64,000 bases of DNA, taken from the NCBI GenBank assembly GCA_034669905.1, contig JAXMOL010000007.1, forward strand, positions 128,970-192,969. Direction: 5' to 3'. Below the pieces are notes generated by a model. That model made no database searches. It worked only from the letters and a program-made list of their open reading frames with translations, and had not been told where the DNA came from. Of the stretch, positions 21,552-36,357 are shown one piece after another (positions within the stretch are counted from its first letter, which is position 1; each line of letters starts with the position of its first letter). The position numbers and the translations under genes are program-made. Source of the stretch: Candidatus Hydrogenedentota bacterium. Lineage in GTDB: Bacteria; Hydrogenedentota; Hydrogenedentia; Hydrogenedentales; JAEUWI01.

Positions 21552-22352
21552 GTGGAATATCTAAACGCAATCCTGTTGGCGGTGGTGGAGGGGATCACAG
21601 AATTCTTGCCGGTCAGTAGTACAGGCCATCTGATTCTCGCCGAATCACTCCTTCAACTCGGCGAAGACAAAGCCTTCACGAACGCCTTTATCGTAATCAT
21701 TCAGTTGCCCGCGATTCTGTCGGTGTGCATTTATTTCTGGGCAAAACTGTGGCCCATGAAAGGCGGCACCCTCGATTCAAAAACGGTGGTCCTGTGGGTG
21801 AAGGTCATCGTGGCCTTTCTGCCAGCCGTTGTCTTGGGACTGCTGTTTGACGACGTCATCGAGGCGCTCTTCAACGACACCGCAGTGGCTATCGCGCTGA
21901 TTGTGGGTGGGATCATCATTCTCCTCGTGGAACGACGTACTTATGAGGGAGCAACCGACTCCATTCATGACTTGACGTACAAACAGGCTATCTCCATCGG
22001 GTTCTGTCAGTGCCTGGCTATGATTCCGGGCACTTCCCGTTCTGGTGCCACCATTGTTGGGGGGCTTCTTCTGGGGGCGAGCCGGTCCGTGGCGGCAGAG
22101 TTTTCGTTTTTCCTCGCCATTCCCACCATGGTGGGTGCGACGACCTACACGATGTACAAGATCACGAAGAACGGATTGGAGTTTACGACCCATCAGTGGA
22201 CGCTCATTGCCATTGGTTCGATCGTGGCCTTCCTCGTGGCCTATGCCGTGGTCGCCTTCCTGATGGCATTTATCCAGAAACACTCCTTTAATGTTTTTGG
22301 CGTGTATCGAATCGTCATTGGCGTGATCGTGTTGTTGTTGGTGGCCACCTGA
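21552..22352 (+). CDS. uppP: Undecaprenyl-diphosphate phosphatase
   Basis: MEYLNAILLAVVEGITEFLPVSSTGHL start is canonical BacA/UppP. 266 aa. Confidence 0.92.
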   Translation: MEYLNAILLAVVEGITEFLPVSSTGHLILAESLLQLGEDKAFTNAFIVIIQLPAILSVCIYFWAKLWPMKGGTLDSKTVVLWVKVIVAFLPAVVLGLLFDDVIEALFNDTAVAIALIVGGIIILLVERRTYEGATDSIHDLTYKQAISIGFCQCLAMIPGTSRSGATIVGGLLLGASRSVAAEFSFFLAIPTMVGATTYTMYKITKNGLEFTTHQWTLIAIGSIVAFLVAYAVVAFLMAFIQKHSFNVFGVYRIVIGVIVLLLVAT

Positions 22353-22363
22353 CGGGTCCCTGA

Positions 22364-22831
22364 TTGATAAGGAAATGTGCTATGACCGCCCCGGAAACAG
22401 AAGAAGCCTCAGCGGCGTCACAACAGTTGGTGCTGGCCGGCATTCTCGTGATGCCCCTGGCCTACGTCGTCGCGGCCTACATCCTCCATGCCATTGACGT
22501 GCTGCCAACAGAGGGCTTCGCAGCATTGGACTCCCAGACCACCCTGCTGCTGGCAGGTGTGTTCCTGCTCTCCTGCATCCTGAGCGCCGTGGTCTCGCCC
22601 GTGCTCAAGAAAAAAATCCTGCAGGCCGGCGAAGTGGAGGGGAGCTTGGATCGTCAGACCCGCTTCAAAGCCTCTATGCTTGCCATGGCGACCTCCGAAT
22701 CGGGCGCCGCTCTCGGGCTTGTGCTGATCTTGCTGACCGGCAACTTACTTTATGGCACCCTCTTGTGCGCCCTGTCTTTTGCGGTAACCTGCTTCCACTT
22801 TCCACGCCGTCGTTGGTTGGAAGAAGGATAG
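22364..22831 (+). CDS. hypothetical membrane protein
   Basis: Four predicted TM helices. No recognisable motifs. Confidence 0.5.
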   Translation: MIRKCAMTAPETEEASAASQQLVLAGILVMPLAYVVAAYILHAIDVLPTEGFAALDSQTTLLLAGVFLLSCILSAVVSPVLKKKILQAGEVEGSLDRQTRFKASMLAMATSESGAALGLVLILLTGNLLYGTLLCALSFAVTCFHFPRRRWLEEG

Positions 22832-22891: not shown

Positions 22892-22921
22892 TTGACAGTG
22901 AGCGTCCGAAAACGCTACAGT
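22892..22921 (+). promoter_or_regulatory. putative sigma-70 promoter for the downstream glycan cluster
   Basis: TTGACA followed by an 18-nt spacer and TACAGT. Confidence 0.25.
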
Positions 22922-23055: not shown

Positions 23056-24240
23056 GTGGCCGTCTTGTCTAAACGACACGAAATTCTCAACGCTGCCTTG
23101 CGCGTCTTTCTCGATCTCAGTTGTATCGTGGGCGTGTACTGCGCCACCGTGTGGCTTGTGATTGGCGAAGAGACCGGTTACGTGCACCAGCTTCAAAACG
23201 GTTTGCCCTATGTGGAAGCCATGGTCGTGGTCTGGTTTCTCGTCGCCGCCGATCAGCGCTTGTTCTTGTCCCGCCGGAGTGAAGCCCTGGTGGCCTTGCT
23301 CTTCTCGGTTGCCAAGGCCTTTTTTACCGCGTTCTTGTTTACCGTATTCATTGTGGCCCTGTTTCTTCAGGAAGATCTTAACCGTACCTTCCTCTTCCTC
23401 TTCGGTTTCTTTGTGCTCTTTGGACTGTTAGCATTTCGCTTGATCCTCGGTCTGAGCCTGTGGAATCTGCGCCGACGTGGCTTTAACTCCCGTCGCATCC
23501 TGATTATCGGGAGCAACGAACGGACCCAAAAACTCGTGGGTATCCTCCATGCCAACGAGCACTACGGCTACCACGTGGAGGGCTTCCTGGAACATGACCA
23601 AGACCGGCGTCACCATCTGGAGTCCCTCGATGTACCCTACCTGGGCGACATTGAAGAATTGGACAAAGTGCTGATCAACCGGGTGATCGACGCGGTCTAC
23701 ATCGCGCTGCCCGTCCGCTCCCACTATGAAATGATCCAAAGCGCGGCCCACCTCTGCGAAGGGGTTGGCGTTTCGGTCCGATTCATGGCCGATCTCTTTC
23801 CCCTGCGAATGGCAACGAGTGATTTGTCCCGCGTCGGCGATGTGCCACTCCTGACCCTCTCCACCGAGTCCGAAGTGCAGCCGCCTTTCGCCCTTCACCG
23901 GGCCATCGACATGGGGGTGTCCCTGCTGTTGCTGGTTTTTCTTTCACCGATTTGTCTCCTGGTGGCACTCGCCATTAAAATTGATTCACGGGGACCGGTG
24001 TTAGTGCGTCGTCCCCGTCTGGGTCCGGGAGGTCATGCCTTCCAGGATATTGTATTTCGCACGACCGTCGGGGCATCATGGGGGGATAGCGATGCCACGC
24101 TGACGCGGGTGGGGAGAATCCTGCGCCGCTACGGCATCGACGAATTGCCCCAATTGCTAAATGTATTATCCGGTGACATCAGCCTTGCAGGCCCCACGCA
24201 CTCCGGTGCCCAGGGTGGCAAGGTGGATAGCCCGGTCTGA
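23056..24240 (+). CDS. Polyprenyl glycosylphosphotransferase paralog, C-terminally truncated/degenerate (likely inactive)
   Basis: Aligns with the next gene through the membrane and linker region. The KFRSM motif is VFRTT, GDISLAGPTH replaces [10 protein letters not shown], and the ORF then stops, so the PGxTGxWQ catalytic tail is missing. Confidence 0.7.
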   Translation: MAVLSKRHEILNAALRVFLDLSCIVGVYCATVWLVIGEETGYVHQLQNGLPYVEAMVVVWFLVAADQRLFLSRRSEALVALLFSVAKAFFTAFLFTVFIVALFLQEDLNRTFLFLFGFFVLFGLLAFRLILGLSLWNLRRRGFNSRRILIIGSNERTQKLVGILHANEHYGYHVEGFLEHDQDRRHHLESLDVPYLGDIEELDKVLINRVIDAVYIALPVRSHYEMIQSAAHLCEGVGVSVRFMADLFPLRMATSDLSRVGDVPLLTLSTESEVQPPFALHRAIDMGVSLLLLVFLSPICLLVALAIKIDSRGPVLVRRPRLGPGGHAFQDIVFRTTVGASWGDSDATLTRVGRILRRYGIDELPQLLNVLSGDISLAGPTHSGAQGGKVDSPV

Positions 24241-24312
24241 TACGGCGTGGGGCGCGCAGATGCGTTCCAGAAAGGGCATTGGGGCGGGGCCCACAACGTG
24301 TAGTACAGGGAT

Positions 24313-25788
24313 TTGAGGAGACCATACGGGCCTGTGTCTGAGAGTAAACCAAGAAAAAGGGTCGTGCCGCCATTCGTACTGGCGCTACTGGACACCTGCT
24401 GCATTGTAGGCGCTTTCGCTACGGCCATACACTGGTCCACGGAGCTCTACGAGCCGCTCCTGCCCGCCGTCAAATCGAACCTGCTCTACCTCCTCGTCGT
24501 TATTCTCGTCTGGTTTGCCGCCGCCCTGGAGCGCCATTTGTGGAGCCCCACCCGGCGACAGGATGTGGTGCACTACCTGGCCACGGTGACCAAGGCCGTC
24601 GGCGACGCCTGTGTCTTTTGTGTATTCGTCATGGTCCTTTTCACCCGTAGTGGCGTGAACGAAGAGGGTCAAAGCTACGGCGGCCTGGACCATACCTTTC
24701 TCGTCGTTTTTTGCGCAACCACCCTCATCTATTTGCTGGTGTTCCGTCTCAGCCTACGGCTGATTGTACGAGAGCTTCGCAACCTCGGTATTAATACCCA
24801 TCGGGTCCTTATCGTGGGGGCCAACGAGCGCACCGTCCACTTGATTCAGGTGTTGAAGATGCAAACGGGTCTCGGGTATACCCTCGAAGGTGTACTGGAC
24901 GATGAAGCCGGTCGCTGTGAGGAAACCGATGCAACCGGCGTACCCTATCAGGGAAAGATCGCTACACTGAAGGATCGGCTTGTACAGGGTGAAATCGACG
25001 AGGTCTACATCAGCCTTCCGGTTCGCTCGCGCTATGAAGAGATCCAGGAAATCGCCCACCTCTGTGAAGGTGCGGGCGTGCCCGTCCATCTGGTCGCCGA
25101 TCTGTTTCCCATGCGAGTCGCCACGAGCCGCCTGATGCACCTGGAAGATATTCCCCTGCTGAACCTCTCGACCATTCCCGAGGCGCACGGGAAGGTCTTT
25201 ATGAAGCGGGCAATGGATTTCGTGGGGTCGACACTCCTGTTGATTGCACTCGCTGTTCCCCTGACCGTCCTTGCCATCCTCGTGAAGCTGGATTCCAAAG
25301 GGCCCGTCTTCTTCCTCCAGGAACGGGTCGGACAGAACCAACGCCGCTTCAAGATGATCAAGTTTCGTTCCATGATTGTGAATGCCGAAGAGGTTCAGGC
25401 GGCGCTCCTCGATCAAAATGAAATGGACGGTCCGGTCTTCAAAATAAAGAACGATCCCCGCATTACCCGGCTGGGTCGCTTTATCCGGAAGTACAGTCTG
25501 GATGAGTTTCCCCAACTCTTCAATGTCTGGCGCGGTGAAATGAGTCTGGTGGGCCCACGGCCCCCCATTCCTTCGGAGGTGGAGCAATACACCTGGAGCC
25601 AGCGACGTCGCCTGAGCATTAAGCCCGGCATGACCGGCTCCTGGCAGGTCAGTGGCCGCAATGAGGTGGGCTTTGAGGAGTGGGTCGAGATGGATCTGGA
25701 CTATATCGATTCCTGGTCCATTGGTCTTGATATTCTGATCCTGCTCAAGACCTTTCGGGCGGTCGTAGCGGGCCGCGGCGCCTCGTAG
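24313..25788 (+). CDS. Polyprenyl glycosylphosphotransferase (WbaP/EpsB-like bacterial sugar transferase)
   Basis: [25 protein letters not shown] and [10 protein letters not shown] motifs. Confidence 0.88.
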
Positions 25789-26154
25789 CTACCGACTGGG
25801 CTTTCGGGTCGGCGCGCACGTGCGGCAGCTCTTCGACGTGTTATTCCCCCTTCGGGCCGCGTCTGTCATGACGTGGGAAACCGGCACTTGTGCACGGGGC
25901 ATTTCGTCTGGCAGGATTAGGTAGCTAAGAGCGCTATACCCGCCAAAATGGGCAAGAACACGTTGGGGTAGCAGGTGCTAATTTCGGGGCGTACGAAGGC
26001 AGACCCGTTGGGGTGCGGAAGCGCACTGACGCGGGCGTGGCGGCAGCGAGATGAAATCGGCGAAAGGCACCGGCGACAGCGGGTTGCCCTCTCCGGGGTT
26101 GTATACTCCGACGGGTAGTGTGCTATGGTTTTATCGCATCACGAGGAGTGTATA

Positions 26155-28000
26155 CGTGTATCAAATTACCGCGAAATCGGGCAATTCCAAGGGGACTTCC
26201 TGGGTTGTGGAGCACGCACCTCTTGTCTTCGGGCGGGATATGAATTGCGATATCAAGGTGAGTGATCCGCTCGTTTCCAGGCGCCATTGTGAAGTGGCGC
26301 TGGCGGATGGAAAAGTAACCCTTCGGGATCTGGGTAGCAGCAATGCCACATTCGTCAATGGCGAGCCCATCTCAGAGGCGGATCTGGCCGCTGGCGATGA
26401 AGTGGCCGTCGGAAGTGCTGTTTTTCTGGTCACGCGGGTCCGTGAAGTTGGTACCCAGACACCGCCGCCCTCCCAGGGGAATTCGCCCACTTCTTCCCTG
26501 ATCATCGGCGAGCCGGTCTATATGAAACGGGATAGCGAGACCTTGTTCTCTCAGGCCCGCCCCCGCACGGGGGAGGATCTGGCCGATCTGTTCACACTCA
26601 GTCGCGCCCTGAGTGAGGCAAGTACGACCTCGGGATTGATCACGGCATTAATCCAGCGGGTCGCGGAACGCTTTGAGCCCGAAGCGGTATGCGTCGCCCT
26701 CCATCATGCGACGGACGGTACGATGACCTGCTTCCCCCCCGGCAGCGAAAACAACTTTTTGTCCAAGACGTCTCCAGCGGAGATGGTAAACACCGTATCC
26801 ACCCGGCAGCGTGGGATGCTGATACCAGAGAGTTGTCGGAGCCAGGGCGAGGCCGGTATGCGGACCACCGCTGCCGCGCCCATAATTCTGGGAAATGATG
26901 TTATCGGGGCATTGCTCGTGCAGGCGACTTCCCCGGCAAAGATCTATGATGAGACCGACCTCGAATTCCTCATGGCCCAGGCCCTGACTACGGCACCGTA
27001 TTTCCGCGCAATCGAACGGATGGAACTACTGGAGCGAGAAAACCGACGCCTGGTGACCAGCGCGGCCGAAGGGCTGGCCATTATTGGCAAGAGTGACGTT
27101 ATTAACAGGGTCCGTACCCTGGCAAAAGACTGCGCCCGCTCCGATATGAATGCGCTGATTCTCGGCGAGACGGGAACCGGAAAAGAGCTGGTGGTCAGCA
27201 TGATTCACCGCCTGTCTGATCGCTCCGACCATCCCCTGACCATCATTAACTGTGCCGCCATTCCGGCGGAATTGTTGGAAAGTGAATTGTTCGGGTATGA
27301 ACGTGGTGCCTTCACCGGTGCCCATGGGCAAAAGAAGGGCACCTTCGAAGAGAGCGATGGCGGTACCCTGTTCCTCGACGAACTTTGCGATCTGAGCCTG
27401 CCCAATCAGGCACGCCTTCTGCGCGTGATTGAGACCGGCGTGTTTCGACGTCTCGGCGGTCAGGCAGACATTACCGTGAACGTGCGGGTGATTGCCGCAA
27501 CCAATAAGTCCATTTCCGACGAAGTAGATGCAGGGCGTTTCCGACGGGACCTGTATCACCGGCTCAATACCTTCGAGATCGTGATACCGCCCCTCCGAGA
27601 GCGGCGTTCCGACATTGCTGTTCTGGCGGAGCACTTTCATCGCGTGGCGCAAGAGCGCCTGGGCTATCGCACCATGGGTTTTTCTGCGGAAGCCATCGAA
27701 TACCTCAACAATCAGCCGTGGCCGGGCAACGTCCGGGAGCTGCGCAACGTGGTCGAGCGTGCCATGGTGGTCGCGCCTTATGATGCGATTCGACCAGAAG
27801 ACCTGCAGCGAGATGTGGTGTACCGGGCCGAACGCAAGACCGACACCGAGCCCATACTCACGTTGGCGGAAATGGAAAAGCGCCAGATCATCAAGGCGCT
27901 GAACCGCCATGACGGTAATGTGAAGGCGGCTGCAGAGACCTTGGATATCGGACGAAGCACCCTCTATCGCAAAATTGGCGAGTACGATCTGCCCAGTTAA
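26155..28000 (+). CDS. FHA-GAF-sigma-54 activator (AAA+)-Fis HTH transcriptional regulator
   Basis: FHA domain (VFGRDMNCDIKVSDPLVSRRHC). GAF domain. GETGTGKE Walker A. GAFTGA sigma-54 contact motif. C-terminal HTH. The GTG at 26155 is preferred because of an AGGAG Shine-Dalgarno 7 nt upstream. Alternative ATG at 26051. Confidence 0.88.
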
Positions 28001-28380: not shown

Positions 28381-28396
28381 TGGCATCCTAATTGCA
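28381..28396 (+). promoter_or_regulatory. sigma-54 (-24/-12) promoter TGGCATCCTAATTGCA
   Basis: GG and GC dinucleotides with exact consensus spacing (TGGCAC-N5-TTGCA). Immediately preceded by the palindrome AGTACGCGATAGCGTACT at 28363-28380. Confidence 0.6.
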
Positions 28397-31658: not shown

Positions 31659-31857
31659 GCCCCTGGATTGCTATGGGGGCGGAAGGTATGGGTTTCAATA
31701 CGGTGAGGGGAATGCTAGCACTGCCCTTGCGGACTTCGCAATGATCCCAGGTGCAGCCGGGGCGCCCCGGGGCCTTCTCTTCCCCGGCACGGGGCCAATC
31801 TGATACCATGTCGCGACATACCCCATTGATCCATCACGTGCCAGGAAAGCCTCTGAA

Positions 31858-34968: not shown

Positions 34969-36357
34969 GTGTCCGGTCAACAGGAGGAAGCGTGCGTGGT
35001 AGGCCTTCGGGAACAGCAAGGGGTCCGTGCCCTTTCACTGGCGACCGATCTGTTGCTTTACTATGCGGCCCTCAGTGTGGCGACTTTGTCACGCTGGGAT
35101 ATCTTGACCCAGGTGGATTTCGTGCTCCTGCAGCGCGACCGGCTCATCTGTGTGGTCATTTTCCTGCTCGCATCCATCATGTTGGGCCGACTCAATCTGG
35201 CCCGACTGACCGACCGCTTTGACCTGATTTACCACACCCTGGTGGCCCTGGCCGTCACGGGCGTGGTAACCCTCGTGCTGGTGACCCTGCTGCCGGCCGA
35301 GCTTCGCATGATTTCCCGCCGTGAGTTGGTACTGAGTGTGCCGATTGCCGCCTGCTTTCTCGGGGTCTGGCAATACGCGTCGGCGGGCATGATTTCCCGC
35401 TTCACCAGTCTGCACCGCCTGTTTTATGTGGTGGGTGATGGCGATGAGGCCCGACGTATCGCGGCAGAAATTGCCAACGATCCTTCGGCCTTTTCCGATG
35501 CCGTCTGTGTGAGTTTTGAAGGGTTGCGGGTCGAGTGCGCCCGTCTGGATACCACCCTGGGCCCCGATCATGCCAGCGTCAAGAGCGTTATCATCTGCAC
35601 GGGAGATGCCCAGGAAAGCGTGCTCCACGAGCTGCTCGAGTTCTGTGAACAGCGTTTCCGGGATACCTTCGTTCACCCGACCCTGACCAACGCCTTGCTC
35701 TTGCACCACGGCAATCTGATGCCCGTCGCAGGGATTCCCCTCGTGCGTGTGGCGGGCGAGCAGTCCTCCAGCCCCTATCTCTACGCCAAGCGGACGACCG
35801 ACGTGCTCGTGTCGTTGATTGGGCTGACCCTGGCGTCGCCCATTTGTCTGGTGACGGCCATCGCCGTGAAATTGACCTCTCCCGGGCCCGTGTTTTACGC
35901 CCAGCAGCGGCTGACCAAGGGCGGGCGTCCCTTCACCATCTACAAGTTTCGCTCGATGCGGGCCGATATGGAGTTGAAGGATGCCTCCGGTCACGTGTTG
36001 GCCCAGCCCGATGACCCCCGCATTACGCCCGTGGGCCGCTTCATTCGCAAGCACCGTATCGACGAAATTCCCCAGCTCTATAACGTGCTTGTAGGCGATA
36101 TGAGTTTGGTGGGGCCCCGGCCGGTCTGGAAGGAATTCTACGACCAGCAGCGGGAAGAATTGCCCCTGTTCGACCGTCGATTGGTGGTACGCCCCGGCTT
36201 GGCCAGTCTTTCCCATGTGCTGGGTTCCTACTCCTCTACACCGGAAGATCGCCTGCGCTATGATCTGGTCTATATCAACACCCTCTCTTTCGATGTGGAT
36301 TTGCGGGTGCTGCTGTCGACCGTGCGCGTGGTCCTGAGCGGGCGGGGAGCCCAATAA
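34969..36357 (+). CDS. Polyprenyl glycosylphosphotransferase (third paralog)
   Basis: IYKFRSM, DEIPQL and [10 protein letters not shown] motifs. Confidence 0.85.
   Translation: MSGQQEEACVVGLREQQGVRALSLATDLLLYYAALSVATLSRWDILTQVDFVLLQRDRLICVVIFLLASIMLGRLNLARLTDRFDLIYHTLVALAVTGVVTLVLVTLLPAELRMISRRELVLSVPIAACFLGVWQYASAGMISRFTSLHRLFYVVGDGDEARRIAAEIANDPSAFSDAVCVSFEGLRVECARLDTTLGPDHASVKSVIICTGDAQESVLHELLEFCEQRFRDTFVHPTLTNALLLHHGNLMPVAGIPLVRVAGEQSSSPYLYAKRTTDVLVSLIGLTLASPICLVTAIAVKLTSPGPVFYAQQRLTKGGRPFTIYKFRSMRADMELKDASGHVLAQPDDPRITPVGRFIRKHRIDEIPQLYNVLVGDMSLVGPRPVWKEFYDQQREELPLFDRRLVVRPGLASLSHVLGSYSSTPEDRLRYDLVYINTLSFDVDLRVLLSTVRVVLSGRGAQ

Follow-up and report, generated by a model that had tools for sequence, protein, structure and literature searches.

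In a 64,000-nucleotide stretch of a Candidatus Hydrogenedentota genome (contig JAXMOL010000007.1; this whole stretch is hereafter the window), two open reading frames (ORFs) for large monotopic phosphoglycosyl transferases (Lg-PGTs) lie in tandem, a short gene (ORF1, named S) followed by a full-length gene (ORF2, named L). We found that the short gene is not a pseudogene. The invariant adjacency of the two genes and their repeated fusions support the view that ORF1 and ORF2 are one functional unit, in which S is an obligately linked partner of L. We consider it likely that S is a conserved, catalytically inactive Lg-PGT paralog that acts with the adjacent L, most probably as an asymmetric S-L heterodimer. 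Large PGTs are gatekeepers of O-antigen, capsule and exopolysaccharide synthesis. A sequence-only reading of this DNA had reported three PGT genes in one cluster, all of which we confirmed; they and the spacer between the first two are as follows:

23056-24240, + strand: ORF1 (S), 394 amino acids (aa), a tail-less Lg-PGT paralog, presumably non-catalytic.
24241-24312, + strand: S-L spacer, 72 bp (93 bp if ORF2 begins at the GTG at 24334), with two in-frame stops.
24313-25788, + strand: ORF2 (L), a full-length, catalytically complete Lg-PGT of 491 aa from the TTG at 24313.
34969-36357, + strand: ORF3, a full-length PGT of 462 aa, outside the S-L unit and within a glycosyltransferase sub-cluster.

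By pairwise alignment, ORF1 is 37% identical to ORF2 over ORF1 aa 7-380, that is, through the linker region, as the earlier reading had claimed, and as far as the SLxGP motif; the similarity of ORF3 to ORF1 and ORF2 (39-40% identity) is confined to the catalytic domain. Pfam matches Bac_transf (PF02397) in ORF2 and ORF3 over profile positions 1-178 of 179, and in ORF1 only over positions 2-107, a partial match scoring 90.3 against a gathering threshold of 27. With the NCBIfam model TIGR03025, ORF2 and ORF3 score 413.2 and 332.6 bits, both above its cut-off of 295.55, while ORF1 stays below every NCBIfam cut-off (229.6 for TIGR03025). The last residue of ORF1 is aa 394, 14 residues past SLxGP and, as had been read, ahead of the PGxTGxWQ segment. 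Judging from the gene call in a 94%-identical locus (L009), ORF2 probably starts at the GTG at 24334 (484 aa), and a Shine-Dalgarno-like GAGGAG lies 5' of that codon at 24315-24320. Within the spacer (24241-24312) we found neither a terminator-like site nor a coding remnant.

The nearest family of ORF1 is that of the WbaP-type Lg-PGTs; ORF1 has their architecture and does not qualify as a catalytic member. WbaP of Salmonella enterica (PDB 8T53), which is the best Foldseek match to the ORF1 model, is a homodimer whose interface is made by the C-terminal half of transmembrane helix 3 (TMH3) and by a beta-hairpin, which each protomer adds to the sheet in its partner's domain of unknown function (DUF); its catalytic domains face away from the interface, with the active sites 77 A apart, and its isolated DUF, which mediates inhibition, is stabilised by UMP, UDP and UTP, with UMP inhibiting the enzyme (PMC10942596). 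The AlphaFold2 (AF2) model of the ORF1 monomer (predicted local distance difference test score, pLDDT, 72.9) has four transmembrane helices, a Rossmann-like DUF at 146-243, a low-confidence hairpin, a re-entrant helix, two strands, two helices and a disordered tail. Confidence for the hairpin is low in the WbaP monomer prediction too (PMC10942596). When Foldseek compared the model with the small transferase PglC, ~105 columns were aligned of chains of 185-193 residues. The regions of S are the following:

23056-23475, + strand: four-helix transmembrane bundle, aa 1-140 (AF2 helices 2-35, 42-66, 78-103 and 110-140).
23482-23784, + strand: cytoplasmic, Rossmann-like DUF, aa 143-243, a complete PF13727/CoA_binding_3 match (75.6 bits against a cut-off of 25).
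23785-23871, + strand: beta-hairpin region, aa 244-272 (ADLFPLRMATS...PLLTLS), equivalent of the domain-swapped dimerisation hairpin of WbaP.
23890-23991, + strand: re-entrant membrane helix with the DX12P motif D285...P298 (AF2 helix 279-310).
23992-24195, + strand: degenerate remnant of the first ~55% of the PGT catalytic domain, by residue comparison and Foldseek.
24196-24237, + strand: C-terminal tail, predicted disordered (pLDDT ~30), with the K-V-D-S-P-V end at 24220-24237.

The DUF is the most constrained part of S, with the motifs IIGSNERT and HLCEGVGV.VR, and the hairpin segment is conserved in both S and L. TMH3 (aa 78-103 of S) is strongly conserved; within-family identity over it is 0.47 in S versus 0.42 in the partner L, and over the remnant core it is 0.39 in S versus 0.80 in L. 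This remnant carries the motifs VFRTT (24052-24066), DATLT (24091-24105), DELPQ (24139-24153) and GDISLAGP (24172-24195), and the terminus K[VIM]DSPV is common to orthologs down to ~48% identity.

The sequence-only reading had left open whether ORF1 is a recent pseudogene or a retained non-catalytic paralog. A search of 5.8 billion proteins recovered dozens of homologs of ~390-410 aa, from 94% down to ~40% identity, the named sources of which are all Candidatus Hydrogenedentes/Hydrogenedentota metagenome-assembled genomes (MAGs); the closest relatives of ORF1 are found in loci L009 (94% aa identity) and L011 (95% in the best segment; a Candidatus Hydrogenedentota MAG), and a look-up of the exact ORF1 sequence gave no record. 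When 130 unique sequences were aligned, 60 stopped 7-24 residues after SLxGP, 70 carried the full tail of ~76 residues and none was intermediate. All short forms except one (59/60) fell into one clade, in 19 of 20 bootstraps, the exception being P0118, a broken long form in which KFRSM and DPRMT are kept. The short forms have a single ancient origin. They also make up a small, sharply bounded family: an exhaustive profile search of 1.84 billion representative proteins gave ~30 representatives at 298 bits or above, followed by ordinary PGTs of ~470 aa at 277 bits or below. P0330, P0331 and P0371 were considered as independent tail-less families and rejected; with intact catalytic motifs and a sudden break, they resemble long forms truncated by the end of a contig. 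Databases name the ~400-aa S proteins 'sugar transferase' or 'hypothetical protein'.

Comparison of ORF1 with its closest relative (94% aa) gave a nonsynonymous rate (dN) of 0.036 and a synonymous rate (dS) of 1.48, hence a dN/dS of 0.024, which is comparable with that of ORF2 (0.028), at a near-saturated dS of ~1.3-1.5. By region, dN/dS of ORF1 was 0.007 in the DUF, 0.017 in the remnant core and 0.044 in the tail, and below 0.06 in all regions. In a tblastn search of the 64-kb window, the C-terminal 86-87 residues of ORF2 and ORF3 matched only ORF2 and ORF3 themselves; since there is no tail match near ORF1 and the spacer is only 72 bp long, there is no frameshifted remnant of the catalytic tail, either at 24241-24312, where the earlier reading had proposed to look for one, or elsewhere in the window. 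A recent pseudogene, or a sequencing or assembly artefact of a normal full-length PGT gene, would account for the last ~72 Bac_transf profile positions being missing and for several motifs being degenerate. It would not account for dozens of independent assemblies sharing both the stop position and the terminal K[VIM]DSPV, for a dN/dS of 0.024 at near-saturated dS, or for the single ancient origin, and the genuine broken long form, P0118, looks unlike S. We give this explanation next to no credence and regard it as refuted, because ~60 short orthologs reaching down to ~40% identity fall into one clade under purifying selection like that on ORF2. The other option, a retained non-catalytic paralog acting as scaffold or regulator, gained support, and adjacency and fusions (see below) sharpen it to a partner of the adjacent L.

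We then compared the catalytic residues of S and L. The conserved features of monotopic PGTs (monoPGTs) are, in PglC numbering, the DX12P motif in the re-entrant helix, the D93-E94 dyad, K59, R88, R111 and D168; the equivalent of D168 stabilises the re-entrant helix, and K59, R88 and R111 orient the substrate (Schwabe et al., PMC12802240). Counts were made over 70 free L, 59 free S and 25 L modules from natural S-L fusions. K59, R88, D93, E94, R111 and an Asp in the D168 region are present in all free and fused L. Among free S, K59 is found in 6 of 59, R88 in 7 and R111 in 9, and the D168 region is absent from all 59; D93 is kept in 47, the rest having H, E, N, Q or V, and E94 in 57. Fused S modules keep D93 in 18 of 25 cases. 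The Arg of the 'FR' motif is present in all L and in 59/59 free S, and the DX12P motif of free S has its Pro in 59/59 and its Asp in 54/59; this Pro is not universal in L. ORF2 itself and its 94% ortholog have DX13P (ORF2 aa 302-316, 25216-25260) and not the 'strictly conserved' DX12P, and 17 of the 70 long forms have a Trp in the proline column with a Pro a few residues further on.

ORF2 has the complete set (K350, R383, D397-E398, R416, PGMTGSWQ and D461). ORF1 has D285...P298 and the Asp-Glu dyad D362-E363, and it lacks the equivalents of K59, R88 and R111: V333 stands in VFRTT, and neither DATLT nor GPTH contains the Arg, versus KFRSM, DPR.T and GPRP. Also missing is the C-terminal third of the PGT domain, including the PG.TG.WQ block and the D168 equivalent. 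The degenerate VFRTT motif had been noticed before and lies at ORF1 aa 333-337. GDISLAGPTH, which the earlier reading set against [10 protein letters not shown], is indeed present at aa 373-382, although the counterpart quoted there belongs to ORF3, ORF2 reading [11 protein letters not shown]. The same reading described ORF1 as lacking the catalytic C-terminus; the C-terminal third is missing, but the description is imprecise because the catalytic dyad (PglC D93-E94) sits in the part retained. Nor has the wide conservation of the short form, which that reading had coupled to an intact catalytic Asp elsewhere, come with any substitute catalytic apparatus.

Judging from these residues, catalysis has presumably been lost in S. 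An S that is still an enzyme, using the dyad and the re-entrant helix in a partial reaction or in another phospho-transfer, would give the locus three initiating activities. ORF1 does keep D362-E363, DX12P, the FR Arg and the TRxG...DELPQ block, and close relatives show purifying selection on the remnant core (dN/dS 0.017). However, 12/59 free S and 7/25 fused S modules have another residue in place of the nucleophile Asp, the substrate-orienting residues and the C-terminal third are mostly or wholly gone, some lineages have deleted the entire remnant, and no other part of S is so poorly conserved across the family as this remnant. We therefore regard an enzymatic S as improbable.

The arrangement of the two genes is constant. 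In all eight loci examined (the window and seven fetched through S orthologs of 94-40% identity), S is followed on the same strand by an L of 472-493 aa after a gap of 17-106 bp, and the outer flanks differ strongly among some of the eight. A scan of one genome per GTDB species yielded 47 loci, with an S-to-L pair in at least 15. All 47 are in Hydrogenedentota MAGs save a few labelled 'uncultured Nitrospiraceae'; MAGs with this label and S/L loci are those of L018, L021, L023, L033, L038, L044, L052 and L053, and the labels on these bins are probably taxonomic mislabels. The pairwise distances of S and L correlate closely (r = 0.96, 44 pairs). Read-through or recoding between S and L was considered and rejected: of 19 unfused pairs, 7 share a reading frame (p = 0.46), so there is no excess and no sign of read-through, and in the window two in-frame stops lie between them. 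In five unfused loci a lone in-frame stop separates S from L, and therefore fusion or fission is one mutation away.

Such fusions exist. In L018, L021 and L048, a single ORF encodes S, a Pro/Ala/Lys-rich linker of ~40-65 residues and L. With the L021 fusion as query we retrieved ~28 clusters of 852-909 aa, 44-58% identical over the full length; their spread over independently made ENA, JGI, NCBI and Logan assemblies shows that they are not assembly artefacts. A tree was built from 46 S modules, of which 20 are free, 25 fused and 1 intermediate; in it S was monophyletic in 20/20 bootstraps with fused and free modules interleaved, and parsimony required at least three fusion/fission transitions. 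The linker of one fusion (P0124, L018 2926-5703) contains the peptide SLSNGDKLC twice, which may be a local duplication or an assembly quirk.

A second fused architecture of 709-781 aa is found in P0136, P0145, P0146, P0149 and P0156, which have two CoA_binding_3 stretches and one Bac_transf, in the order four TMHs, DUF and hairpin, then linker, then a complete Lg-PGT. The N-terminal module corresponds to S residues ~4-268 and ends just past the hairpin, so that the whole PGT remnant is gone, and only ~20-30 residues of linker precede L. This module corresponds exactly to the dimerisation unit of WbaP (PMC10942596). Loci L054 and L055 contain long ORFs similar to this type. At the other extreme, the upstream PGT copy of L017 (2971-4278) keeps GPRPP and PGMTG (PGMTGLLQ) and is without only the last ~40 residues; the L017 copy, S and the P0136-type modules together are a degeneration series. 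The L017 copy also keeps [23 protein letters not shown], is separated by one in-frame stop from the downstream full-length gene, and branches at the base of the S clade.

The AF2 model of a natural fusion, P0122, had a predicted TM-score (pTM) of 0.67 over 880 residues. Its S hairpin (strands E255-259/E262-267) reached a pLDDT of 54-71, versus 42-57 in the ORF1 monomer. This model supports S-L pairing, not decisively. Going by the established topology of Lg-PGTs, the fusions would be compatible with such pairing: S would end, and L begin, on the cytoplasmic side, and the swapped hairpin would end beside the partner's DUF.

The two proteins have also degenerated reciprocally. Mean pairwise identity in the DUF is 0.57 for S, 0.44 for paired L and 0.55 for solo L, and in the core strands it is 0.39, 0.80 and 0.79, respectively. 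Taking as conserved the columns with at least 80% in solo L forms, S retains 83% of these columns in the DUF and paired L 69%; in the catalytic core S retains 48% and paired L 94%. Marked examples in the DUF, S versus paired L, are R242 (100% vs 9%), V210 (87% vs 2%) and Y170 (76% vs 7%). To judge from the alignment, this pattern reads as the signature of duplication-degeneration-complementation between two proteins with one shared job.

We propose the following mechanism. What an ancient duplicate would have retained is the four-helix bundle together with DUF, hairpin and re-entrant helix; its losses would be three residues that orient the substrate and the C-terminal third of the catalytic domain. 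An S-L heterodimer on a WbaP-type interface would then replace the L-L homodimer; L, as the sole active site of the pair, would move a sugar-1-phosphate onto undecaprenyl phosphate (Und-P), and S would give the second half of the dimer and a better-preserved, ancestral-type DUF. We infer the heterodimer from S having kept the interface and DUF elements and from the minimal fused variant having kept nothing else; physical contact through the WbaP-type interface is thus suggested by sequence and by analogy. S could be a scaffold or an allosteric or regulatory subunit, because it would supply a dimer half together with an ancestral-type DUF, which in WbaP is a uridine-nucleotide sensor; a regulatory role of the S DUF may be expected on this analogy. 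A bolder form of the proposal seems doubtful to us, though worth stating: S-L would be an asymmetric dimer that is obligate and arose by duplication-degeneration-complementation, and as such the first monotopic PGT to be hetero-oligomeric, with L inactive or unstable alone, S would carry the only ancestral-type, allosteric nucleotide-sensing DUF, and the KVDSPV tail would dock onto or complete L as the RxG motif of NgBR does on DHDDS (see below).

Several points weigh against the proposed heterodimer. The evidence for the S-L contact that we propose is indirect; the pseudo-dimer within the fusions is judged from pTM and pLDDT only, and two fused chains could alternatively make a dimer of fusions with S-S' and L-L' contacts. 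With its Asp-Glu dyad, DX12P helix and invariant 'FR' Arg still in place, ORF1 may have residual Mg2+ or Und-P binding or an unusual activity. The changes in the DUF of the partner L could reflect adaptation rather than loss. Finally, S is 35% identical to its own partner L versus 37% to solo L, and the monophyly of paired L is unstable in neighbour-joining bootstraps. Neither result supports S as the sister of its own partner, an origin that we set aside, and a tandem duplication is therefore not demonstrated.

S could also be a stand-alone non-catalytic membrane protein (a homodimeric nucleotide sensor, a binder or sequesterer of Und-P, or a scaffold for Wzx, Wzy or glycosyltransferases), co-transcribed with L without forming a WbaP-type dimer with it. 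All homodimerisation elements (TMH3, DUF and hairpin) are kept in S, its re-entrant helix could still bind polyprenyl phosphate, and adjacency and co-divergence prove co-inheritance only. Yet repeated S-L fusion, including a variant that retains just the dimerisation unit on a linker of ~20-30 residues, is hard to explain without intimate association, and the reciprocal degeneration of DUF and catalytic core suggests one shared set of functions. A stand-alone S is in our judgement unlikely, if a more serious contender than an enzymatic S. The comparative evidence for an S-L module, on which the heterodimer proposal builds, is strong; the S/L family does not extend beyond one uncultured phylum, and the central physical claim is one that we infer.

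Family searches and synteny identify window positions ~21.5-43 kb as a Wzx/Wzy-type polysaccharide locus. It runs from UppP through a 155-aa membrane protein, S, L and an FHA-GAF-sigma54 activator to a 977-aa Wzy_C/TPR protein (minus strand), a TPR protein, a GT4, an epimerase and ORF3, and ends with a TPR protein, a GT2, a GT4 and a Wzx-like flippase. The features around the S-L pair are:

21552-22352, + strand: UppP/BacA undecaprenyl-diphosphatase (NCBIfam), upstream of ORF1.
22364-22831, + strand: predicted membrane protein of 155 aa between UppP and ORF1, with no Pfam or NCBIfam match.
22892-22921, + strand: weak sigma-70-like promoter match (TTGACA-18-TACAGT) inside the 224-bp gap 5' of ORF1.
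26051-28000, + strand: FHA-GAF-sigma54 activator gene (NCBIfam; Pfam labels in L001, L003 and L010).

ORF3 being a separate complete PGT, the locus has two initiating enzymes and not three. The earlier suggestion that multiple initiators mean several glycans or redundancy consequently holds for ORF2 versus ORF3 and lapses for ORF1 and ORF2, which are one unit. ORF3 reads PGLASLSH at aa 409-416 (36193-36216), where PG.TG.WQ is expected, with K, R, DE, R and D kept. The 70 long forms surveyed carry PG.TG..Q-type motifs, and PG.TG.WQ itself is shared by ORF2 and each of the 25 fused L modules; PGLASLSH may be a substrate-specificity variant.

The order of UppP and the small membrane protein is the same in L001, L003 and L010, where counterparts of 148-150 aa occupy the place of the latter, and it is not kept in L004, L006 and L008. 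At 7.6-9.6 kb in each of these three loci, which are among the more distant, the upstream genes are divergently transcribed and encode a receiver-domain protein of ~550 aa and a sigma54-dependent response regulator, whereas the window has the UppP/FHA-activator setting. Close to the pair in L008 there are, in addition, PEP-CTERM-domain proteins and Wza/Wzc-like genes. The FHA-GAF-sigma54 activator is a possible regulator of the locus. A sigma54 promoter for ORF1 was sought and rejected: no good -24/-12 site precedes the gene, and matches to this pattern are no more frequent than chance would give (78 versus 67 +/- 8 expected). Sigma-70-like sites number 3 versus 2.3 expected in the region scanned. 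One-mismatch -24/-12 matches lie at 28381-28395 (+), within a 725-bp ORF-poor gap after the activator gene, and at 31716-31730 (+), ~130 bp 5' of the TPR-GT4-epimerase-ORF3 operon.

Why Lg-PGTs dimerise, and what their DUF does, are recent questions (WbaP structure, 2024; EpsZ-EpsW, 2025). A lineage in which one protomer is reduced to the TMH bundle, DUF and hairpin, whether or not a dead catalytic stub is still attached, would indicate that one catalytic domain suffices for the dimer, and it pinpoints the minimal partner module. If the obligate asymmetric dimer is true, nature would already have tried out 'one active site per dimer' with Lg-PGTs. The natural single-chain fusions offer material for structural and biochemical study of an asymmetric Lg-PGT, and in pathway inference for Hydrogenedentota glycans the ~400-aa S proteins should not be counted as initiating transferases. 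The literature we searched, in which subscription journals were incompletely covered and a prior mention is possible, contained no PGT pseudoenzyme, tail-less PGT paralog or PGT-PGT tandem fusion.

Among known systems, WbaP is the closest, as ORF1 shares its order of four-TMH bundle, DUF (PF13727), hairpin, re-entrant helix and PGT core. WbaP, however, has two complete catalytic subunits, whereas S has its own gene, is without the C-terminal third and the K59, R88 and R111 equivalents, and has relatives fused head-to-tail with the catalytic subunit. With the small monoPGT PglC (PDB 8E37/8G1N), the S remnant aligns over the first ~105 residues, a stretch that takes in the re-entrant helix, the DE helix and the first strands. 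PglC is monomeric and forms a complete enzyme with ~185-200 residues, and S lacks the second half of the fold. In Myxococcus xanthus, the activity of the large monoPGT EpsZ depends on a separate non-catalytic protein, EpsW, proposed to favour the active dimeric conformation (PMC12802240), a precedent for post-translational control of the priming step via dimerisation. EpsW is an unrelated single-domain response regulator and EpsZ is without the hairpin, whereas S is a PGT paralog and both S and L have the hairpin. Finally, published work on the NgBR/DHDDS cis-prenyltransferase (PMC7573591, PMC12663261; bioRxiv 10.1101/139675) describes a family that is homodimeric in bacteria and became a heteromer of a catalytic subunit and an inactive paralog that activates or regulates it, with a conserved C-terminal RxG motif of NgBR crucial for enzymatic activity. 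Fold and chemistry are unrelated, and the likening of KVDSPV to RxG is an idea only; the evolutionary logic is the same as that proposed for S and L, and so is the lipid-carrier glycosylation pathway in which it is found.

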